Positions 1 to 10,152 of a stretch of 10,152 nt of DNA are shown here, in pieces. The stretch's first letter is position 1. Every line of letters begins with the position of its first letter. Origin of the DNA: a virus (lineage: Duplodnaviria; Heunggongvirae; Uroviricota; Caudoviricetes); the IMG/VR virus record IMGVR_UViG_2534681939_000019; one strand, given 5' to 3'. The position numbers and the translations under genes are program-made. The notes beneath the pieces are model-generated. The model was not told where the DNA came from, made no database searches, and worked only from the letters and a program-made list of their open reading frames with translations.

Positions 1-357
1 GTTCCTGATGGTGTGGCGATGACGGGTACCGGTAATCCGTTCCTGATGTCGTACTTCACTCAGACCACTGACGGCAGAGTGAATCTGATGCATCACAGGA
101 AAGCCGGAAACACGAAGCTGGGGGAGTTCGGCGATTACGGTAACGACTGGCAGACGCTGGAGCTGGTGTTCACCGCCGGCAGTGCCACGGTTACTCCGAA
201 ACTGAATGGAGTGGCTGGCCCGGCATTCCAGGTTATAAAAGACAGTATGACACTGGGACTGAATGCGCTGACGCTGACGGATGTTACAAAAAATGCAGCG
301 TATGGCGTTGAGATAGAAAGTCTGGTGCTGGAGATAAATGCACCGGCATCATCATAA
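1..357 (+). CDS. 3' end of an ORF that continues upstream of the window; unknown function, Thr/Gly/Asn-rich C-terminal domain
   Basis: Frame is open from nt 1 (VPDGVAMTGTGNPF...) to TAA at 355-357, so the gene is 5'-truncated by the window edge. No motif recognised. Confidence 0.4.
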   Translation, partial: VPDGVAMTGTGNPFLMSYFTQTTDGRVNLMHHRKAGNTKLGEFGDYGNDWQTLELVFTAGSATVTPKLNGVAGPAFQVIKDSMTLGLNALTLTDVTKNAAYGVEIESLVLEINAPASS

Positions 358-506: not shown

Positions 507-721
507 ATGTACCAGATGGAAAAAATCACAACGGGTGTGTCATACACCACGTCAGCGTGGGGACGGGATACTGGTTACTGCAGCTGCTGGACAAAGTCTC
601 TCCGTCCCAGTGGGTGGCGATAGGTGTGCTGGGGAGTCTGCTGTTTGGGCTGCTGACATATCTGACGAACCTGTATTTCAAGATTAAAGAAGACCGGCGT
701 AAGGCGGCGCGGGGAGAGTAA
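507..721 (+). pseudogene. S: Class II pinholin S (phage 21 S-like), reading frame disrupted by an apparent 1-bp deletion near 557
   Basis: From ATG 507 the frame gives [17 protein letters not shown] then runs to TAG 621-623; the -1 frame from 557 gives [54 protein letters not shown] ending TAA 719-721. Joined, this matches the phage 21 pinholin as recalled from memory. Dual-start MYQM motif. Confidence 0.8.
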
Positions 722-722
722 A

Positions 723-1070
723 GTGATGAAGAAAAAATACGAACTGGTTGTTAAAGGGATAAATAATTACCCGGATAAGATTACTGTTACTGTGGCACTG
801 GAAATTGGTGGGTATCCGTCACTGTTGTTGCCAGATGTGGCGATTAGTCTTGACCGTACTGAAGGTGCCACGCTGGAGTTTTACGAAGCTGAGGCGAAAA
901 AGCAGGCGAAGCAGTTTTTCATGGATGTTGCTGCCGGGTTATGTGAAGGGGATGGTCCGTTACCGGAAAAGCGTCCCGTAATTTTAGAGGCGCAGGATGT
1001 GTTGATAACCTACAGAGGAAAACTACCGGGAATAATTACGGGTTCTCTGAAGACTCCACCGCTGGCCTGA
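723..1070 (+). CDS. Hypothetical protein between holin and endolysin; possibly like the small DUF1327/YdfR-type proteins found at this position in lambdoid prophages
   Basis: 115-aa ORF with no hydrophobic segments; GTG 723 / ATG 726 immediately after the holin stop, with GGGGAGAG about 7 nt upstream of ATG 726. Family assignment is from memory and unverified. Confidence 0.55.
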   Translation: MMKKKYELVVKGINNYPDKITVTVALEIGGYPSLLLPDVAISLDRTEGATLEFYEAEAKKQAKQFFMDVAAGLCEGDGPLPEKRPVILEAQDVLITYRGKLPGIITGSLKTPPLA

Positions 1071-1120
1071 AGACTTAACATATCCAGGGATTTGAAATCG
1101 ATAAACCCTGATAAATATCC

Positions 1121-1655
1121 ATGAACGCAAAAATCAGATACGGCCTGTCGGCTGCCGTTCTGGCGCTGATTGCCGCAGGTGCGTCTGCGCCTGAAATCCT
1201 CGACCAGTTTCTGGATGAAAAGGAAGGTAACCACACCACAGCATACCGTGATGGTGCGGGTATCTGGACCATCTGCCGTGGAGCCACCCGGGTGGATGGT
1301 AAGCCTGTTATTCCTGGCATGAAGCTGTCGAAGGAAAAATGCGACCGGGTTAACGCCATTGAGCGTGATAAGGCGCTGGCATGGGTGGAGAAAAACATCA
1401 GAGTGCCACTGACCGAACCCCAGAAAGCGGGGATTGCGTCATTCTGTCCGTACAACATTGGCCCCGGTAAGTGTTTCCCGTCGACGTTTTACAGACGGAT
1501 TAATGCAGGAGATCGAAAAGGTGCCTGCGAAGCTATTACGCTGGTGGATTAAGGACGGTGGCAGGGACTGCCGTATTCGCTCAAATAACTGTTACGGTCA
1601 GGTATCCCGTCGTGACCAGGAGAGCGCGCTGGCGTGCTGGGGAATCGACAGATAA
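1121..1655 (+). pseudogene. R: SAR endolysin R (phage 21 R-like lysozyme), reading frame disrupted near 1538
   Basis: N-terminal signal-anchor-release segment (GLSAAVLALIAAGASA) then lysozyme core through GDRKGACEAI, after which this frame stops at 1550-1552 (TLVD*). The +1 frame continues RWWIKDGGRDCRIRSNNCYGQVSRRDQESALACWGIDR to TAA 1653-1655, matching the expected endolysin C-terminus. Confidence 0.8.
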
Positions 1656-1794
1656 GCAGAATATTTTGCTGAAAAATGAGGTTTGCTTACATGGATGGAT
1701 AACACGAAATCCTGCAAATTGGCAAAATGTAAGTGAATAAAGTCAAAACAGTTGTTTAACACTCAGGCACCGTAATGATGCCTTTGTCATTTCT

Positions 1795-1816
1795 GCGCAT
1801 CTCACGCGCATCTCAC
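1795..1816. repeat. Perfect tandem direct repeat, 2 x 11 bp (GCGCATCTCAC), in the intergenic region upstream of the antirepressor-like gene
   Basis: GCGCATCTCAC at 1795-1805 is repeated exactly at 1806-1816; lies about 110 bp upstream of ATG 1926. Confidence 0.6.
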
Positions 1817-1925
1817 AACACAGAACCTTTCAGGATGACCCTTGAGGATACCGGTTTGGCTGTCGGTGCCTTTCTGTGGGCTGGATTCCTGTGAGACAAG
1901 GTTCATCACTAAAAGGAAATAACCG

Positions 1926-2498
1926 ATGAATATGATGGCCGTGCCGTTTCACGGCAACTCTCTTTATGTAGTTAACCATAATGGCGAACCATACGTTCCC
2001 ATGAAACCTGTCGTTGCGGGGATGGGGCTGGCCTGGCAATCACAGTTGGCTAAGTTAAGACAGCGTTTTGCGTCAACTATAACGGAAATCGTTATGGTTG
2101 CTGAGGATGGGAAACAACGCAATATGGTGTCCATGCCACTTCGAAAACTTGCCGGCTGGCTACAAACCATTAATCCCAACAAAGTAAAACCCGAAATCCG
2201 CGATAAGGTCATCCGGTATCAGGAAGAGTGCGACGATGTTCTTTACGAGTACTGGACGAAGGGTTTTGTCGTTAATCCCCGTAAAATGAGCGTGATGGAA
2301 GAACTCAACCAGGCTTGTGCTGACATGAAACGGGATAAAAACATTGCCAGTGTGTTTGCTACCGGGCTGAATGAGTGGAAACAGGTTAAAGCCGCGCAAT
2401 GTATCAAAAAATCCGTAACGCTGGTAAATGAAGCGAATATGCTGATTGATTTTGTCCTGGCTGATACAGGCAAAGGGAAAATAACAAAGGCGGATTGA
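1926..2498 (+). CDS. Phage antirepressor-like protein (P22 Ant N-terminal-domain type)
   Basis: 190-aa ORF with SD AAGGAAAT 5 nt before the ATG; N-terminus VPFHGNSLYVVNHNGEPYVPMKPVVAGMGLAWQSQ ... PLRKLAGWLQTINPNKVKPEIRDKVIRYQEECDDVLYEYWTKG fits the antirepressor N-terminal domain pattern as recalled. Confidence 0.7.
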   Translation: MNMMAVPFHGNSLYVVNHNGEPYVPMKPVVAGMGLAWQSQLAKLRQRFASTITEIVMVAEDGKQRNMVSMPLRKLAGWLQTINPNKVKPEIRDKVIRYQEECDDVLYEYWTKGFVVNPRKMSVMEELNQACADMKRDKNIASVFATGLNEWKQVKAAQCIKKSVTLVNEANMLIDFVLADTGKGKITKAD

Positions 2499-2620
2499 TG
2501 GGGTGGCTAATGATATCAGATAAACTCATAACGCTGGTGAAGAGCCTCTGTGTACTTGTCGGCATTTCATTTTTAGTCATGCTGGTTGCCATTTTCTTTC
2601 CACCGCCTGGCGAGTCCTGA
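2498..2620 (+). CDS. Candidate small single-pass membrane protein (40 aa), translationally coupled to the antirepressor-like gene
   Basis: ATG 2498 overlaps the upstream TGA (ATGA); alternative ATG at 2510 in the same frame. Product MGWLMISDKLITLVKSLCVLVGISFLVMLVAIFFPPPGES has one hydrophobic helix; too short for the ORF track. Confidence 0.3.
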   Translation: MGWLMISDKLITLVKSLCVLVGISFLVMLVAIFFPPPGES

Positions 2621-2650
2621 CGTTATCGGGACTGGTGGGGTGAAAGAGAG

Positions 2651-3122
2651 ATGAACCGTGTTCTGTGTGTGGTGATTATTGTCATGGCGGTTGGACTGTG
2701 GTGCGCTGTGGCCTGGGCAACAAACCATTACCGTGACTACGCGCTCACCTACAAAGCGCAGCGCGATAAAAAAGCCAGAGAGACTGGAACAGGCGAATGC
2801 CACCATTACTGACATGCAGGTGCGCCAGCGTGATGTTGCTGCGCTCGATGCAAAATACTCGAGGGAATTAGCCGATGCGAGAGCTGAAAATGAAACTCTG
2901 CGTGCTGATGTTGCCGCTGGTCGTAAGCGCCTGCGGATCAACGCCACCTGCCCCGGTACCGTGCGTGAAGCCACCGGCACCTCCGGCGTGGGCAATGATG
3001 CCGCCGTCGAACTCTCTCCGGTTGCTGGACGAAACGTTCTCGGTATCAGAGACGGAATCATCAGCGACCAGGCAGCATTGAGAATGCTTCAGGAATATAT
3101 CCGCACTCAGTGTATTAACTAG
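2651..3122 (+). pseudogene. Rz: Rz i-spanin, reading frame disrupted by an apparent 1-bp insertion near 2783
   Basis: ATG 2651 gives MNRVLCVVIIVMAVGLWCAVAWATNHYRDYALTYKAQRDKKARE (transmembrane N-terminus, lambda Rz-like) then stops at 2810-2812. The +1 frame continues LEQANATITDMQVRQRDVAALDAKYSRELADARAENETLRADVAAGRKRL...EYIRTQCIN to TAG 3120-3122, matching lambda Rz. Confidence 0.8.
2875..3081 (+). CDS. Rz1: Rz1 o-spanin lipoprotein, embedded in the +1 frame of Rz
   Basis: MRELKMKLCVLMLPLVVSACGSTPPAPVPCVKPPAPPAWAMMPP: lipobox LVVSAC and proline-rich segment as in lambda Rz1; lies wholly inside Rz in the +1 frame. Confidence 0.7.
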   Translation: MRELKMKLCVLMLPLVVSACGSTPPAPVPCVKPPAPPAWAMMPPSNSLRLLDETFSVSETESSATRQH

Positions 3123-3146
3123 TATTTTTGTTATTCGGAGAATGCA

Positions 3147-3370
3147 TGAAGAAATTATTGGTAACCGTAAAGCCTTTTCAGGGAACAATTCCGTTCCGTA
3201 TTTTGCAGCGTGGTCGTGTTCTTGTTGAAGGTTCGTTCAGTGGTAAATGTACGCAATTACACTCCAGGACCTTTCAGGTGAATGCCACGAATGAAGAGCT
3301 AACCGTTGAGTGTACGATGAATGCCGCTAAATGCCGCATGGTATCCGCTGCATTACAGCCAGTGTGTTGA
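3147..3370 (+). CDS. Hypothetical small protein (74 aa)
   Basis: ATG 3147 (MKKLLVTVKPFQG...) has GGAGAA 6 nt upstream; it is the internal start of track ORF 3128..3370. No motif recognised and no signal peptide, so it is not Bor-like. Confidence 0.4.
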
Positions 3371-3726
3371 GCGACCTTATTATTCATGCGCGGTATTGTC
3401 GCCGTATTCCTGCATTAACAGAGACCGCAGCCCGACCGGGAGAATCCTCTGCGCGAGTGTGCGGGGATAATCAAAAACGATACACACCGGGGTTTACCGC
3501 GTTAACGGAGCGCGGCGTTGTCCCCTCATGGTCGCTGGTCCGGTGCGATGGTGGAAGAAGCCGGATGTTTATCACTATTAATTGATAACACAGAAATGGA
3601 TTCATTGGTTTTCAGCACGTTTTTGTATTCGTATTATTGAACATCTGTTTATTTTACTTTTAACATATTGATAATAAAAAGAGCTGTAAATCATTAGATG
3701 AGTCGATTTTGTCCGGGGAAGTTCAA

Positions 3727-3879
3727 ATGGATTTTATGCTGACGGTTTCTGGTGTGGTTATCCTGTCCATTGCTTATACTGCAGATAAATATGGCTGCCA
3801 TTTGTTATCACGTATTGGCGCTTATTGCTCGTTGATGCTGATTTCCTCGTCGCTTTTTTTGAGTAAGTTATATTAATTA
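3727..3879 (+). CDS. Candidate small hydrophobic protein (49 aa) inside an AT-rich island
   Basis: ATG 3727 with GGGGAAG 5 nt upstream; product MDFMLTVSGVVILSIAYTADKYGCHLLSRIGAYCSLMLISSSLFLSKLY has two hydrophobic stretches. Short and AT-rich, so it could be spurious. Confidence 0.25.
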
Positions 3880-4001
3880 TAACAAATAATTTTCTGTGTT
3901 TTTTCAGGCTATCCCGTCAGACGGGAAGCCTGTACTGCCGGGGGACGAATGGAAAACTGATGTGTCCGGTAAACTGTGTGTTCTTGTGAACACCATGTTA
4001 C

Positions 4002-4184
4002 TTAATTAATGTAATTCATACCCGAACGCTCTGTTGACAGCCTTCTTCTGCAGGCTTCAATAACCCACGCTGAAAAGTTACCGGAACCTTTATGTTCAAG
4101 GGCGATATTGATCTGTTCAATCATGTGATTGGGGAAACGGATATTGCGGATTGTGGTTCTGCGGGTCCGGTTTTTCGATGACAT
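4002..4184 (-). CDS. Small ribbon-helix-helix-like DNA-binding protein (YlcI/YnfO DUF3950-like)
   Basis: 60-aa minus-strand ORF MSSKNRTRRTTIRNIRFPNHMIEQINIALEHKGSGNFSAWVIEACRRRL...: basic N-terminus, a beta-strand-like RNIRF, then two helices. SD AGAGGAAAG lies just upstream of the ATG on the minus strand. Resemblance to K-12 prophage YlcI/YnfO is from memory. Confidence 0.6.
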   Translation of the reverse strand: MSSKNRTRRTTIRNIRFPNHMIEQINIALEHKGSGNFSAWVIEACRRRLSTERSGMNYIN

Positions 4185-4225
4185 TTTCTTTCCTCTGGTG
4201 ACAAGCTATATGGCGAGGATTTTAC

Positions 4226-4768
4226 ATGGCTGTGCTTCGTACGTTACCGGGCAGAATCAAAACTCTGAACACCCGGCGGATAAATGTCCTGAGGGGGGAA
4301 CAGCGTCGTGTCAGTGGCAGTGCCCGGGTTTCCCTCAAACGTCGTATCTGGCGGAGGGATGCCGGACACTGTTGTCTCTGTAGACGCGTGGTTGACCTTC
4401 GTGACAGTGAACTCGATCACCGCATTGCACTTCAGTTCGGTGGTGGTAATGAGGAGACGAACCTCTGGACCCTCTGTACTGAATGCCATCGCCAGAAGTC
4501 AGCGAGTGAAGCGGCGAGTGGTATGCCTGATCCGACGTTGCCTGAGCTTCCTGATGGCACGCTCAGGGCCGACGGAATCACTCGGCCTGTGACCACGACC
4601 CGGGGGGGGATCATCCGGCGAAAAAAAACGATCGCCCTGGACACCGCGCCCCCTCTCACGCAGAGAAAAAATTCCCGTTTCAGGGCAGTTAACATGTTAA
4701 CTGGCTGCCCGGGCATTTTTGCGGTTTTTATCTTTATTATTCAGTTTGTTGTGCGGAAAAAATGTTAA
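4226..4768 (+). CDS. HNH endonuclease (terminase-associated, HK97 gp74-like) with an unusually long C-terminal tail
   Basis: HNH motif HCCLCRRVVDLRDSELDHRIALQFGGGNEETNLWTLCTECHRQK; SD GAGGA 7 nt before ATG 4226; directly upstream of terS. The last 60-80 codons run through G8 and A8 homopolymers and into the palindrome array, so the true stop is uncertain. Confidence 0.75.
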   Translation: MAVLRTLPGRIKTLNTRRINVLRGEQRRVSGSARVSLKRRIWRRDAGHCCLCRRVVDLRDSELDHRIALQFGGGNEETNLWTLCTECHRQKSASEAASGMPDPTLPELPDGTLRADGITRPVTTTRGGIIRRKKTIALDTAPPLTQRKNSRFRAVNMLTGCPGIFAVFIFIIQFVVRKKC

Positions 4769-4814
4769 CAGGCTTTTTCAGCAAATGTTAACCAGGCAGC
4801 AGTTAACATTTGCG
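4683..4814. repeat. Array of GTTAAC-containing inverted repeats between HNH and terS; candidate cos / terminase recognition region
   Basis: Perfect 18-bp palindrome CAGTTAACATGTTAACTG at 4686-4703; AATGTTAACA at 4761-4770; 12-bp inverted arms GCAAATGTTAAC (4781-4792) and GTTAACATTTGC (4802-4813) around a 9-bp spacer. Five copies of ATGTTAAC-like half-sites lie within about 130 bp. Confidence 0.55.
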
Positions 4815-4883
4815 GCATGAGACGCCGGGAAAAATGGGCTGAACCATACCCGGCTGAGTGCGTTCTGGACCCGGGAGGAGGCT

Positions 4884-5447
4884 GTGCTGACAACGCAAAA
4901 ACGAAAATTTGCGCTGGCGCTCATGTCCGGGAAAAACAAAACAGCGTCAGCCATTGCCGCCGGTTATTCGGCGAAGACCGCCAGGGTTAAAGGCTCGCAG
5001 CTGGCAAAAGATCCTGAGGTGCTTGCGTTTATAGCCCGTAAACAATGCGAGACGGTGGAGGTGGATGAGGTTCCTGTTTACCGGCAGAAAAAATCAGAGC
5101 AGGAGGATAAACCCCGTCGCCGTGAGGCGGCTGCAATACCACAGCCGGACGAAAACAATCTGGAGATGCCACCGTCCGCGGTGATGTCTCCTGGTATTGA
5201 ATATATGGAGGATGGTCTTCCCGATCCGGTGAAAGCCATGGGGCGGATCCTGGTGGAAAACCTCTGCATTGATCCGAAACTGGCACTGGATGCGGCCTGG
5301 CGTCTGGCGCAGTTCACGCACCATAAAAAAGGGGATACCGGGAAAAAATCGGCAAAAGGTGATGCCGCGAAAAAAGCGGCTAACCGTTTTGCGGTGCCAC
5401 CGCCACCCCGACTGGTGGTGAATAACGATAATGAGGGCAACGGATGA
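4884..5447 (+). CDS. terS: Terminase small subunit (Terminase_2-like, N-terminal HTH)
   Basis: MLTTQKRKFALALMSGKNKTASAIAAGYSAKTARVKGSQLAKDPEVLAFI fits the TerS HTH pattern (AGYS.KTA...GS.L). GTG 4884 follows GGGAGGAGG (4873-4881); an in-frame ATG at 4833 is an alternative start without a good SD. Stop overlaps the terL start (ATGA at 5444-5447). Confidence 0.8.
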   Translation: MLTTQKRKFALALMSGKNKTASAIAAGYSAKTARVKGSQLAKDPEVLAFIARKQCETVEVDEVPVYRQKKSEQEDKPRRREAAAIPQPDENNLEMPPSAVMSPGIEYMEDGLPDPVKAMGRILVENLCIDPKLALDAAWRLAQFTHHKKGDTGKKSAKGDAAKKAANRFAVPPPPRLVVNNDNEGNG

Positions 5448-7105
5448 TACCTGTATGGAGCACAGCCTGCCCGGACTGGGCAGAGCGCCTGAAAAAGGGG
5501 CTGTCGATTATTCCGGATCCGATTTATCCGGACGAGGCCGCACATGCCCTGGCGATTTTTAAACAACTGCGGATTGTGGATGCACCTGGTAGCCCTACGT
5601 TCGGGGAGTCCTGTGCACCGTGGGTGTTTGACCTGGTGGCGGCCCTGTTTGGCTCCTACGATGCGCAGACCGGTGTACGCCATATCAAGGAAGTTTTTAT
5701 CCTTATCCCCAAGAAAAACAGCAAGTCCACGCTGGCCGCGGGGATCATGATGACTGCACTGTTACTGAACTGGCGGCAGGCGGCGGGTTACACGATTCTG
5801 GCCCCGACTGTGGAGGTGGCGGCCAACGCCTTCAACCCTGCCCGGGATATGGTACGACGGGACGATGATCTGGATGACCTCTGCCAGGTACAGACCCATA
5901 TCCGGACCATCACCCACCGGGTGACGGACACCACCCTGAAGGTGGTGGCAGCCGATCCGAATACGGTGTCCGGTATCAAGTCCGTGGGTACGCTGATTGA
6001 TGAGTTGTGGCTGTTTGGCAAGCAGTGCAAGGCGGAGGACATGTTACGTGAAGCCATAGGCGGCCTTGCCTCCCGCCCGGAAGGGTTTGTGGTGTATACG
6101 ACCACCCAGTCGAATGAACCGCCCGCCGGGGTGTTCAGACAGAAACTGCAGTACGCCCGGGATGTGCGCGACGGCAAAATTCATGATCCGCACTTTCTGC
6201 CGGTGATATTTGAACACCCTCCTGAAATGGTGGAAAGCGGGGCTAACCTGCTGATGGAAAACCTCGCCATGGTCAATCCGAATCTCGGCTATTCAGTGGA
6301 TGAGGCCTTTCTGTACCGGGAGTACCGTAAAGCCCGGGAAGCCGGTGAAGAGACATTCCGGGGGTTCATGTCAAAACACGCCAATGTGGAAATTGGTCTT
6401 GCCCTGCGCTCTGACCGCTGGGCGGGGGCTGATTTCTGGGAAGAGCAGGGCCGTTGTATCAGCCTGGACGATATCCTGCGTCGTGCTGATGTGGTGACGG
6501 TGGGGATTGACGGCGGAGGGCTGGATGATCTGCTGGGGATGTATGTGATTGGGCGTGACCGGGAGACCCGCGAATGGCTGGGCTGGGGCCATGCCTGGGC
6601 GCATGGAACCGCGGTGGTCAGACGGAAGAGTGAGGCATCCCGTTTTCAGGATTTTGTGGCCTGTGGAGACATGACGATTGTCCGTCGGGTCGGGGATGAC
6701 ACGGCGGAAGTGGCGGAATATGTGCGTCGCATTCATGAGGCTGAGTTACTGGACCATATCGGTATTGACCCGTCAGGTGTGGGGCAGATTCTGGATTCAC
6801 TGGCGGAAGCCGGGATCCCCGACGGAATTGTTGTGGGGATAAGCCAGGGCTGGAAGCTGGGCGGGGCCATTAAAACCACCGAGCGCAAACTGGCTGAGGG
6901 AGTACTGGTGCATGGTGGTCAGCCACTGATGGCCTGGTGCGTTGGCAATGCCCGGGTGGAGCCTAAAGGTAACGCTATCCTTATTACCAAACAGGCCAGC
7001 GGACGGGGGAAAATTGACCCGCTGATGGCGCTCTTCAATGCGGTCTCCCTGATGTCCCTTAACCCGGAACCGAAAAAGAAAGAATATGCGGTTTTTTTCA
7101 TATAA
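5444..7105 (+). CDS. terL: Terminase large subunit (ATPase plus nuclease)
   Basis: 553-aa ORF; P-loop-like LIPKKNSKST near the N-terminus, acidic patches in the ATPase region, C-terminal nuclease region with VTVGIDGGG and DPSG. Translationally coupled to terS. Confidence 0.9.
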   Translation: MIPVWSTACPDWAERLKKGLSIIPDPIYPDEAAHALAIFKQLRIVDAPGSPTFGESCAPWVFDLVAALFGSYDAQTGVRHIKEVFILIPKKNSKSTLAAGIMMTALLLNWRQAAGYTILAPTVEVAANAFNPARDMVRRDDDLDDLCQVQTHIRTITHRVTDTTLKVVAADPNTVSGIKSVGTLIDELWLFGKQCKAEDMLREAIGGLASRPEGFVVYTTTQSNEPPAGVFRQKLQYARDVRDGKIHDPHFLPVIFEHPPEMVESGANLLMENLAMVNPNLGYSVDEAFLYREYRKAREAGEETFRGFMSKHANVEIGLALRSDRWAGADFWEEQGRCISLDDILRRADVVTVGIDGGGLDDLLGMYVIGRDRETREWLGWGHAWAHGTAVVRRKSEASRFQDFVACGDMTIVRRVGDDTAEVAEYVRRIHEAELLDHIGIDPSGVGQILDSLAEAGIPDGIVVGISQGWKLGGAIKTTERKLAEGVLVHGGQPLMAWCVGNARVEPKGNAILITKQASGRGKIDPLMALFNAVSLMSLNPEPKKKEYAVFFI

Positions 7106-7130
7106 CCCTGTTCACACTGTAACCATCACG

Positions 7131-7155
7131 AACCGCTCCGGCGGTTTTTTATTTT
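7131..7155 (+). terminator. Small hairpin plus U-tract between terL and the protease gene (possible attenuator)
   Basis: AACCGC (7131-7136), loop TCCG, GCGGTT (7141-7146), then TTTTATTTT; overlaps the protease SD AGGAGG (7157-7162). Confidence 0.35.
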
Positions 7156-7167
7156 CAGGAGGCTGAT

Positions 7168-7746
7168 GTGACTCTTAAACGGGCCTGTTCCCTGCTGACG
7201 GTGAAATCCTTCAGCGAGGATGAACGGGTGATCACCGGGATTGCGTCAACGCCTTCTCCGGATCGGGATGGTGACATCCTGGAGCCGGAGGGGGCGGAGT
7301 TTGGCTGTGCGATCCCGTTTCTCTGGCAGCATGACTATTCCCGTCCGGTGGGCCAGTGTACGGTACGCCGGGTCAGTGAAGGTCTGGAAATCACGGCAAC
7401 ACTGGTGAAGCCCGTACCGGATATGCCGTCGCAACTGGCTGCCCGGCTGGATGAGGCCTGGGCGGCCATTAAGACCGGGCTGGTCAGGGGGCTGTCCGTG
7501 GGCTTCCGTCCCCATGAATACACCTCTCTGGACGGAGGCGGACTGCATTTTCTGCGCTGGGAACTGATGGAGGTGTCTGCCGTCACCGTGCCCGCGAATG
7601 CGGAATGCACCATCCGGACCATTAAATCTTACGACCGCCCGTTTTCTGCCGCGTCCGGCAACCGGAAACCGGTGGTGAAAATCGCATCTTCTGCCGGCGC
7701 TGCGGCACAGTCAACAACCGCTTTTCATAAGGAAAAGACAGAATGA
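7168..7746 (+). CDS. HK97-family prohead protease (peptidase S78/U35)
   Basis: GTG 7168 with AGGAGG 5 nt upstream; VITGIASTPSPDRDGDILEPEG ... FLWQHD ... GLSVGFRPHEY ... MEVSAVTVPANAECTI is the typical motif order of the HK97 protease family. Confidence 0.85.
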   Translation: MTLKRACSLLTVKSFSEDERVITGIASTPSPDRDGDILEPEGAEFGCAIPFLWQHDYSRPVGQCTVRRVSEGLEITATLVKPVPDMPSQLAARLDEAWAAIKTGLVRGLSVGFRPHEYTSLDGGGLHFLRWELMEVSAVTVPANAECTIRTIKSYDRPFSAASGNRKPVVKIASSAGAAAQSTTAFHKEKTE

Positions 7747-7812
7747 ATATTGGCGAACAGATAAAAGTTTTGAAACAAGCGTGCGGCGCTGGCAGCCTCC
7801 CTTGAGGAGGTC

Positions 7813-9102
7813 ATGACCAAAGCCGCAGAGGAAGGGCGCACGCTGGATGTGGAGGAGGAAGAGCATTACGACAACACCGCAGCGGAAATCCGTCAGGTGG
7901 ATGCGCACCTGAAGCGCCTGCGTGAACTGGAAGCCGGTAAGGCCGCCACGGCGCAGCCGGTGAAACAGGCCGGTAACGGGAATGTGGCCGCGGTGGCTTC
8001 TGCGCCGGTGATCCGTGTGGAGCAGAAACTGGATAAGGGGATTGGCTTCGCCCGCTTTGCCAAATCGCTGGCTGCGGCTAAAGGCGTCCGATCTGAAGCC
8101 CTGGAAGTGGCCCGTCGTCAGTATCCGGATGACAGTCGTCTGCATCATGTCCTGAAATCGGCAGTGGGCGCAGGGACCACCACGGATCCACAGTGGGCAG
8201 GCAGCCTGTCTGAATATCAGGAATACGCACAGGACTTTATTGATTACCTGCGTCCGCAGACCATTATCGGGCGATTTGGTCAGGGCGGGATCCCTGCACT
8301 TCGTCAGGTGCCATTCAATATCCGCGTGCACGCCCAGGTGTCCGGCGGTGCTGCCGGCTGGGTGGGGGAGGGTAAGGCAAAACCCCTGACGAAGTTTGAT
8401 TTTGAATCCATCACCTTCAGTCATGCGAAGGTGTCGGCCATTGCGGTACTGACGGAAGAACTGATCCGCTTTTCCAGTCCGGCAGCTGATGCACTGGTCC
8501 GTAATGCGCTGGCAGAAGCGGTGGTGGCGCGTCTGGACACAGACTTTGTGGACCCGAAAAAAGCTGCAGTGGCAGATGTCTCCCCGGCGTCCATCACCCA
8601 TGATGTGAAGGGCACGGCATCAACCGGTAACCCGGATGCGGATGCCGAGGCCGCGTTTGGCCAGTTTGTGACGGCAAATCTGCAGCCCACCGGTGCTGTC
8701 TGGCTGATGTCCAGCACCAATGCCCTGGCACTGTCCATGCGTAAAAATGCGCTGGGTCAGAAGGAATATCCGGACATGACCCTGCTGGGCGGGATCTTTC
8801 AGGGGCTTCCGGTGATTGTCTCCCAGTATGTGGGTGACCAGCTGGTGCTGGTGAATGCCCCGGATATTTATCTGGCGGATGACGGCGGCGTGGCAGTGGA
8901 TATGTCCCGCGAAGCATCACTGGAAATGCAGTCTGAGCCGACCGGCGACAGTACCACGCCGTCCCCGGTGGAGCTGGTTTCCATGTTCCAGACAGGCAGC
9001 GTGGCCATCCGTGCGGAGCGCTGGATCAACTGGCGTCGTCGCCGTACTGCGGCGGTGGCGGTGATCACCGGAGTGAACTACGGCAGTGCGTCCGGCGGCT
9101 GA
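7813..9102 (+). CDS. HK97-fold major capsid protein; the true N-terminus probably starts at ATG 7743 in another frame (apparent frameshift)
   Basis: 429-aa ORF with a coiled-coil-like N-terminal delta region (EIRQVDAHLKRLRELEAG) and Gly/Ala-rich capsid body, placed directly after the protease. ATG 7743 overlaps the protease stop (ATGA) and encodes MNIGEQIKVLKQ before a frame change near 7773-7776. Confidence 0.85.
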   Translation: MTKAAEEGRTLDVEEEEHYDNTAAEIRQVDAHLKRLRELEAGKAATAQPVKQAGNGNVAAVASAPVIRVEQKLDKGIGFARFAKSLAAAKGVRSEALEVARRQYPDDSRLHHVLKSAVGAGTTTDPQWAGSLSEYQEYAQDFIDYLRPQTIIGRFGQGGIPALRQVPFNIRVHAQVSGGAAGWVGEGKAKPLTKFDFESITFSHAKVSAIAVLTEELIRFSSPAADALVRNALAEAVVARLDTDFVDPKKAAVADVSPASITHDVKGTASTGNPDADAEAAFGQFVTANLQPTGAVWLMSSTNALALSMRKNALGQKEYPDMTLLGGIFQGLPVIVSQYVGDQLVLVNAPDIYLADDGGVAVDMSREASLEMQSEPTGDSTTPSPVELVSMFQTGSVAIRAERWINWRRRRTAAVAVITGVNYGSASGG

Positions 9103-9116
9103 GTCTGATAAGGAGG

Positions 9117-9138
9117 ACGGGAGGCGTGCGCCTCCCGT
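9117..9138 (+). other. GC-rich 22-bp palindrome / stem-loop immediately downstream of the major capsid gene
   Basis: ACGGGAGGCG (9117-9126) and CGCCTCCCGT (9129-9138) are perfect reverse complements around a 2-nt centre; no U-tract follows. Confidence 0.45.
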
Positions 9139-9146
9139 AACAGGTT

Positions 9147-9368
9147 ATGGCAAAGATCCGATATCTGCAGGGCACGCATGATGCCCGGCCCGGGGATATC
9201 CGGGATGTCGCACAGCCGTGTGCGGAGGTGCTGGTTCGCCTGAGGAAGGCGGAGTACATCACAGCGCGACGTCCGGCGGGTCAGAAAAAGAAACATGATG
9301 CGGAGCATAGCGAATGTGGAACTTTTTGCGACGAACCCGAAAAAACCAGAAATCAGGACGTGATGTAA
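9147..9368 (+). CDS. Hypothetical small protein (73 aa) between capsid and portal genes
   Basis: Track ORF MAKIRYLQGTHDARPGDIRDVAQPCAEVLVRLRKAEYI...; weak SD; overlaps the predicted portal start by about 55 nt, so it may be shorter or not real. Confidence 0.35.
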   Translation: MAKIRYLQGTHDARPGDIRDVAQPCAEVLVRLRKAEYITARRPAGQKKKHDAEHSECGTFCDEPEKTRNQDVM

Positions 9369-10152
9369 AAGAGGCGGGCTGGACCAGCCTGTTTCAGGCG
9401 GTGGCTGAGCCCTTTGCCGGCGCCTGGCAGCAGGGTGTGAAAGCCGATCCGGAAAGTGTCCTCTCCTTTCATGCGGTGTTTGCATGCATTTCGCTGATAT
9501 CCCAGGATATCGCCAAAATGCGGCTGCGTCTTATGCAGACGGATGCGCATGGGATACGCAGGGAAACGCGCCGGGGGGATATTGCCCGCCTCTGTCGTCG
9601 TCCCAACGCCCAGCAGAACCGCATCCAGTTTTTTGAACTGTGGCTGAACGCCAAACTGCGTCATGGCAATACGGTGGTGCTGAAAATCCGTAATGCCCGG
9701 GGGCAGATCAAAGAACTGCGTATTCTGGACTGGAGCCGGGTTGAACCTCTGGTGGCGGATGACGGCGAGGTGTTCTACCGCATCACACCGGACCGGAACT
9801 GCGGGATCACGGAGGCGGTGACGGTGCCTGCCAGGGAAGTGATCCACGACCGGTTTAACTGTTTTTTTCATCCGCTTATAGGACTGCCGCCGGTGTATGC
9901 CGCCGGGCTGGCGGCCACGCAGGGGCATCATATTCAGGAAAATTCGACGTCTTTTTTCAGAAATGGCGGCAGGCCGTCCGGGGTGATTGAGATCCCCGGC
10001 AGTATTACGGAAGAAAATGCGAAAAAACTGAAGAGCAACTGGGACAGCGGGTATACAGGCGAAAATGCGGGGAAAACGGCCATTCTGAGCAACGGGGCAA
10101 AATACAACCCCACGACGTTTTCACCTGTGGATGCGCAGACGGTGGAACAACT
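9314..10152 (+). CDS. Portal protein (HK97-family), 5' part; continues beyond the window end
   Basis: Frame is open from ATG 9314 to the window end with no stop: MWNFLRRTRKNQKSGRDVKEAGWTSLFQ ... SFHAVFACISLISQDIAKMRLRL ... FFRNGGRPSGVIEIPGSITEENAKKLKSNWDSGYTGENAGKTAILSNGAKYNPTTFSPVDAQTVEQ. The FRNGxRPSG and ENAGK blocks are characteristic of portal proteins. Confidence 0.85.
   Translation, partial: MWNFLRRTRKNQKSGRDVKEAGWTSLFQAVAEPFAGAWQQGVKADPESVLSFHAVFACISLISQDIAKMRLRLMQTDAHGIRRETRRGDIARLCRRPNAQQNRIQFFELWLNAKLRHGNTVVLKIRNARGQIKELRILDWSRVEPLVADDGEVFYRITPDRNCGITEAVTVPAREVIHDRFNCFFHPLIGLPPVYAAGLAATQGHHIQENSTSFFRNGGRPSGVIEIPGSITEENAKKLKSNWDSGYTGENAGKTAILSNGAKYNPTTFSPVDAQTVEQ

Follow-up and report, generated by a model that had tools for sequence, protein, structure and literature searches.

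The closest described relatives of the virus record IMGVR_UViG_2534681939_000019 are the late regions of Shiga toxin (Stx)-converting and other lambdoid phages. The nearest phage records, PPyecE_EH1910 and YYZ-2008, match it at 96.5-97.3% identity across 90-100% of its 10,152 nucleotides (hereafter the window, by which we mean the whole stretch of DNA analysed). The window shares with these phages the gene order, the sequence and the Pfam assignments and, judged by its sequence, is the late region of an ordinary lambdoid Stx-phage-like prophage of Escherichia coli. In the two phages, however, the genes are intact, and the window differs from them solely by single-base insertions and deletions (indels) and by a mixture of alleles. 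A preliminary description had noticed that the holin, the endolysin, Rz and the N-terminus of the major capsid protein of the window read as conserved proteins only when two frames are joined, and had given equal weight to domestication of a prophage that can no longer lyse its host and to assembly indel errors. We conclude that the frame disruptions are almost certainly consensus errors in a draft repeat contig rather than mutations carried by the bacterium, since these genes are all intact in the finished genome of the strain from which the contig came.

Frame disruptions in the window and intact genes in the finished genome of the same strain

By direct match, the entire window is contig AIFJ01000017.1 of the draft assembly GCA_000249355.2 (2012) of E. 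coli DEC3F. A published strain table equates DEC 3F (whole-genome shotgun project AIFJ) with strain 493/89 (PMC4959244). The finished chromosome of the O157 strain 493/89, NZ_CP038412.1, is the best complete-genome match to the window and, since DEC3F is 493/89, provides an independent sequence of the same strain. Twelve places in this chromosome match the whole window and six match the head genes. Two of the approximately 6-12 copies were extracted and aligned, one at 2,565,441-2,576,585 (L001) and one at 2,275,246-2,291,435 (L012), and the rest were judged from BLAST identity bands. Indels were positioned by comparing the window with L001 and with two further finished relatives, FORC_042 (L002) and O55:H7 (L003), using MAFFT and BLAST, followed by a gap-sensitive realignment.

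The alignment to the three finished relatives placed all four junctions where they had been described, at 557 (holin), 1538 (lysozyme), 2783 (Rz) and 7738-7772 (capsid N-terminus). These are real features of the record, but the set was incomplete: the window carries 21 private single-base indels (14 insertions and 7 deletions) spanning 557-7772, which affect nine genes, three of them lysis genes, as well as several non-coding sites (table 1). The earlier impression that lysis genes are preferentially hit thus arises from looking only at recognisable genes. The terminase subunits TerS and TerL and the 5' part of the portal gene are intact, as had been supposed; the protease, also listed as intact, is the N-terminal domain of a split open reading frame (ORF) of 645 amino acids (aa).

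Both aligned 493/89 copies encode intact holin, lysozyme (177 aa), Ant (189 aa), Rz, HNH endonuclease (121 aa), TerS and TerL, and an uninterrupted protease-capsid protein of 645 aa in one and 641 aa in the other. It is directly visible in the three-way alignment that none of the 21 indels of the window occurs in L001 or L012. At the capsid linker, the smallest difference between the window and any of the six places in 493/89 is the three missing bases. Independent reads with intact frames at the four junctions had been named in advance as the mark of assembly error, and the finished 493/89 genome presents intact frames at all four, which strongly supports that explanation.

The window shows no other sign of decay. 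Reversing the 21 indels yields 13 full-length ORFs without internal stops, and the repaired holin, YdfR, Ant, orf48, orf74 and TerS proteins are 100% identical to those of L001. Around the sites from 557 to 2783, thousands of bases have zero or very few substitutions relative to L001, yet ten indels occur there. Over its full length, the window differs from L001 by 122 mismatches and 20 gap openings; related finished loci have 100-300 substitutions but 0-2 gap openings. The gap density of the window (20 per 10.2 kb, or 1.97 per kb) compares with 0-0.2 per kb in most of approximately 60 related loci, and the low density holds even in those with more substitutions than the window. Genuine pseudogene decay does not produce such a ratio of indels to substitutions.

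The privacy of the indels was equally observed directly. Short queries centred on them were compared with 5,426 complete E. coli genomes; no record reached 99% identity, and none had the window allele, at any of the frame-breaking sites. The holin deletion was found in none of 4,041 places in 715 complete E. coli genomes and the lysozyme insertion in none of 1,820 places in 675. For the region from Ant to Rz (2380-2800; 4,385 places in 1,289 genomes) the top hits all lacked the eight indels, and for that from ylcI to the HNH gene (3840-4620; 4,480 places in 1,464 genomes) the top hits lacked all, or all but one, of seven, the lone exception being one run-length variant. The capsid linker carried the three extra bases in all 2,889 places of 1,248 genomes. 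A patch of 74 bases in Rz (2672-2745) has no 28-mer in any complete E. coli genome. An exact-pattern scan of IMG/VR returned no copy of the Ant, linker or Rz patch alleles of the window, while an adjacent indel-free 29-mer of the window, used as a control, gave 59 matches.

Exact protein look-up among approximately 15 billion proteins gave the same picture. The 143-aa lysozyme, 190-aa Ant, 53-aa Rz, 192-aa protease and 429-aa capsid protein were each found on the DEC3F contig alone, and the 180-aa HNH product was absent from this collection. When each site was checked in the 12-63 related loci that cover it, the only indel alleles that recurred were two non-coding run-length variants, T6 at 7144 and G8 at 4606; one other locus shares T6 at 7144, so this run length does vary. 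The T4 run of orf48 is present in 54 of 54 other loci, and none of the three insertions at ylcI is found in any of 12 other loci.

Two candidate explanations for individual sites were set aside. The frame-restoring patches in Ant and Rz might have been natural alternative alleles; however, the Rz segment 'GLWCAVAW...RDY' occurs in the window only (0 of 63 other alleles, the remainder having 'CGAL[WS]L..NHYRDN' or the lambda form), and neither IMG/VR nor the complete E. coli genomes contain an exact DNA match. A 54-aa holin fragment found on 35 contigs looked like a shared truncation; of the eight places shown, six are cuts at contig ends, one is the window itself and one is the sister draft DEC3E, which has a different indel.

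Origin of the indels and alternative explanations

The cause of the errors, as we infer it, is a merging of repeats combined with read errors. Strain 493/89 carries approximately 6-12 near-identical lambdoid late regions, the reads of several of which the assembler would have merged into one consensus. Such a consensus would mix alleles of different copies and would have acquired the 21 single-base indels in patches where bases were poorly called or reads poorly aligned. The strain's own DNA encodes an ordinary, intact Stx-phage-like late region comprising phage 21-type holin, YdfR, lysozyme, Ant, Rz/Rz1, HNH endonuclease, TerS, TerL, protease-capsid and portal.

The alleles of the window fit this scenario. 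More than 1,000 complete E. coli genomes contain at least 80% of the window, with a top identity of only 98.6%, and between 6500 and 7700 the best same-strain copy reaches 97.3% and the best in any genome 97.8%. In the three-way alignment, 107 of the 125 substitutions of the window relative to L001 are the L012 allele. At the 184 sites in 4700-10152 where the two finished copies differ, the window is L001-like at 106 and L012-like at 78, with 33 switches and no other allele. A sequence made up of known alleles at 184 of 184 sites, with no close single copy, suggests that repeated prophage copies were merged into a consensus. The window resembles a combination or a splice of two natural alleles in the HNH patch (allele A, CACT-GG...CCA-GACC; allele B, CA-TCGG...CC-CGACC with G8) and likewise at the first of the linker deletions, which suggests gapped alignment of reads from diverged copies, with both alternative bases retained.

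Approximately 14 substitutions occur in neither same-strain copy (2738, 3845, 4400, 6606, 7526, 8469 and others). Some of them alter residues that are otherwise invariant, such as N29Y in Rz, where N is conserved in 63 of 63 other alleles, and C59R in the HNH protein. They are probably base-call errors or alleles of further copies.

Other drafts contain comparable lesions. The sister draft DEC3E, from the same project, has its own holin-breaking insertion of an A (AIFI01000030.1, at about 2990-3000 of the extracted locus L004), equivalent to window position 548 and eight bases away from the deletion in the window; its lysozyme and Ant genes are intact, and the insertion is likely another assembly error. 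Among IMG/VR prophage contigs derived from drafts, four (L059, L048, L054 and L021) show, when compared with finished genomes, densely clustered single-base deletions, patchy and of one sign like those of the window: L059 (IMGVR_UViG_2529293069_000015) has 24 single-base deletions in 8.6 kb, 13 of them within 250 bp of the capsid gene, and L048 has five within 45 bp of a contig end. The IMG/VR viral contig collection contains the same class of artefact.

Simple miscalling of homopolymers does not account for all of the indels. Sixteen of the 21 alter the length of an existing run, but just five of these runs have four or more bases, and a further five of the 21 are non-homopolymer insertions. 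The earlier observation that some of the junctions lie outside long homopolymers is therefore correct; it had been offered as a weak argument against simple homopolymer miscalls. It does not rescue a biological origin, because a merged repeat consensus has other sources of error too. Misaligned reads from diverged copies probably contribute to the indels. The DEC genomes were presumably sequenced in part by the 454 method. The flow-order logic of that method is compatible with the five non-homopolymer insertions but, by our reasoning, would be so by chance in about 25% of cases and is uninformative.

Several points weigh against our conclusion. The error was inferred from comparison, not read directly from reads or coverage, and the absence of the indels from 493/89 copies beyond the two aligned rests on BLAST identity bands. 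The finished relative L003 also switches between the two alleles, 23 times; switching by itself is therefore not proof of a chimeric consensus, and we rejected the switch count as proof of chimerism while retaining it as supporting evidence. Finally, five patches, each of exactly three events of one sign with a net change of +3 or -3, make up 15 of the 21 indels, a regularity that our explanation does not fully account for. As the patches in other drafts comprise 2, 5 and 13 indels, it may be a coincidence. Frame selection cannot explain it, because two of the patches are mostly non-coding (one beyond the end of ylcI and one beyond the HNH stop).

The best placed of the alternatives is genuine pseudogenisation, in which one decaying or domesticated prophage of DEC3F, with frameshifted holin, endolysin, Rz and capsid genes, would have lost the ability to lyse its host. 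The frame breaks are indeed present in the deposited sequence, three of the four first noticed are in lysis genes, and O157 strains harbour many defective lambdoid prophages. Nevertheless, we regard it as very improbable. Neither of the two aligned copies in finished 493/89 has these indels, nor does any of its six places at the capsid linker. No other genome among the 5,426, and no contig behind the protein collection, shares the lesions, which were therefore not inherited. Apart from the indels, the window has no nonsense codons, deletions or insertion sequence (IS) elements, and once repaired, six of its genes match the intact copies exactly. Non-coding DNA and genes unrelated to lysis are affected as well, and 21 indels against at most about 14 private substitutions do not make a natural mutation spectrum. 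The same-strain and population evidence leads us to reject the domesticated, lysis-defective prophage considered initially.

Divergence of the stock is somewhat less probable still. The DEC3F culture of 2011-12 might have held a hypermutated copy, or a mixed population, with real indels; the two assemblies were made from separate DNA preparations, and no finished copy exceeds 97.3% over 6500-7700. However, all 184 informative sites carry alleles already present in the two finished copies, so that a mixture of known copies accounts for them and no new copy is needed. The private holin indel of DEC3E points to a process rather than to a strain, and we know of no mechanism that gives two indels per kb confined to one stretch of 7 kb. 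We attach a similarly slight probability to a localised burst of single-base indel mutagenesis in a DEC3F prophage copy or subpopulation, in which the frame-restoring patches of three would leave short recoded stretches within Ant, Rz and the capsid linker.

Programmed translational frameshifting or recoding, by which the junctions would be read through and the genes would function as written, has a negligible probability: programmed frameshifts are indeed found among phage late genes, such as those for tail assembly chaperones, and five indel patches restore the frame, but every homologue examined is a single uninterrupted frame, recoding sites are conserved among homologues, and two of the frame-restoring patches are largely non-coding.

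Gene content of the window

Genes were identified from ORF listings, comparison with annotated genomes and Pfam scans (table 1).

Table 1. Features of the window, with the private indels and their consequences.
Feature	Position	Strand	Evidence	Indels	Consequence
SASA-family carbohydrate esterase, 3' end (DUF6645 C-terminal part)	13-357	+	PF20350; annotation of L001-L003	none	
Class II phage 21 S-type holin, 71 aa intact	507-721	+	PF04971, 8.5e-33, 112.6 bits (repaired protein)	557 -G	GCGGTGGGG to GCGTGGGG; ATG at 507, frame broken after codon 17, last 54 codons read 557-721
YdfR/DUF1327, intact	726-1070	+	same protein on 859 contigs; identical to L001		
Phage lysozyme R, N-terminal signal-anchor type, 177 aa intact	1121-1655	+	PF00959, 87.1 bits	1538 +A	truncated at 143 aa
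Antirepressor Ant (P22_AR_N / ORF11CD3), 189 aa in relatives	1926-2498	+		2399 +A, 2411 +A, 2418 +A	net +3; about 6 codons recoded, frame restored, 190 aa
orf48, 48 aa in relatives	2498-2643	+		2599 -T	T4 to T3; C-terminus changed
Rz spanin subunit, 155 aa intact	2651-3122	+	PF03245, 1.9e-39, 135.2 bits (repaired protein)	2695 +A, 2713 +C, 2717 +G	net +3; transmembrane segment recoded, frame restored
				2783 +A	truncated at 53 aa
Rz1 lipoprotein, embedded in Rz, intact	2875-3081	+	PF06085, 6.9e-21, 74.2 bits	none	
orf46, 46 aa in relatives	3709-3876	+		3860 -T	T8 to T7; C-terminus changed
ylcI/ynfO-family gene	4002-4184 (feature span 3973-4184)	-		3973 +A, 3985 +T, 4009 +A	at 3' end; first two downstream of stop, 4009 in last codons
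HNH endonuclease, 121 aa intact, natural stop 4590-4592	4226-4768 as deposited	+	PF01844	4583 +C	stop 4590-4592 bypassed (read from sequence); 180 aa
After HNH stop				4596 +C, 4606 +G	non-coding
Terminase small subunit TerS, intact	4884-5447	+	PF03592; same protein on at least 1000 contigs		
Terminase large subunit TerL, frame intact	5444-7105	+	3 aa differences from L001		
Terminator-like GC stem and T-run between TerL and protease				7144 -T	T7 to T6; intergenic, non-coding
HK97-type prohead protease fused to major capsid protein, 645 aa	7168-9102	+	PF04586 and PF05065 (repaired protein)	7738 -C, 7761 -T, 7772 -A (linker)	TGA created at 7744-7746; split into 192 aa and 429 aa, both in the same frame
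73-aa ORF between capsid and portal, intact	9147-9368	+	comparison with relatives		
Portal gene, 5' part (first 280 codons), intact, leaves contig end	9311-10152	+	PF04860, 9.4e-54		

The lysis genes form a cassette of the phage 21 type, with a class II holin, a signal-anchor lysozyme and Rz/Rz1. All four Pfam matches exceed the gathering score on the reconstructed proteins, and the order S, ydfR, R, ant, Rz/Rz1 is that of the relatives. Between Rz and ylcI, the segment 3500-4000 has a GC content of 40%, as against 50-60% elsewhere in the window, and contains only small ORFs (of 74 and 46 aa in the relatives); the segment resembles an accessory insertion of the 'moron' kind. The HNH endonuclease gene lies directly upstream of those for TerS and TerL (4226-5447), an arrangement known in HK97-like cos phages, in which the HNH protein assists cleavage by the terminase. 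The exact TerL protein of the window was found, in the protein collection, on the DEC3F contig alone.

The head genes are identified by their domains as an HK97-type module with a protease-capsid fusion: Peptidase_S78 and Phage_capsid domains fall in one repaired ORF between TerL and portal, and relatives have the fusion annotated as a single gene of 641-645 aa. A Shine-Dalgarno-like AAGGA followed by an ATG (window position 7743) stands exactly at the junction of the protease and capsid domains (window 7730-7746; L001 approximately 8228-8240), so the capsid part might also be translated alone from an internal start. The first linker deletion (7738-7739) lies a few bases upstream of this ATG.

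The annotation of three finished genomes, each from a different strain (493/89, FORC_042 and O55:H7), marks the portal gene as a 'frameshifted' pseudogene, 2585, 2579 and 2584 bp long. In 493/89 (NZ_CP038412.1 2575247-2577831, which is 248-2832 of the extracted locus L072) an 833-aa ORF stops 83 bp short of the annotated end, and the second copy in this strain, L012, has an intact 753-aa portal. The annotation could reflect a shared C-terminal frameshift, a length-variable region or an effect of the annotation model. A portal-connector fusion was rejected, as the connector is annotated separately.

Comparison with known systems

The proteins that GenBank lists for this contig, namely the truncated lysozyme, the split Rz, the 190-aa Ant, the 180-aa HNH protein and the separate 'protease' and 'structural protein', are, on this evidence, artefacts. 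It would be wrong to count them among pseudogenes or novel variants, or to take them as signs of prophage domestication in sorbitol-fermenting O157:H-. More generally, frame breaks in short repeat contigs of early drafts should be compared with a finished genome before any biological reading is attempted. Had the breaks been real, they would have described a lysis-defective Stx-phage-like prophage of modest interest, defective lambdoid prophages being common in O157.

The interrupted lysis genes give the window a superficial likeness to the cryptic prophages DLP12, Rac and Qin of E. coli K-12. The lesions of genuine cryptic prophages, however, are inherited and shared, and large deletions, IS insertions and a build-up of substitutions accompany them; the window has none of these features. 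A closer likeness is offered by the collapsed-repeat contigs of early next-generation-sequencing drafts of E. coli O157. BRIG treats collapsed repeats as a feature of draft assemblies that is worth displaying, and in its example figure the prophage regions of Sakai are marked on a simulated draft (PMC3163573). Like such contigs, the window is short, consists wholly of a multi-copy prophage late region, and mixes the alleles of its copies with private single-base indels in patches.

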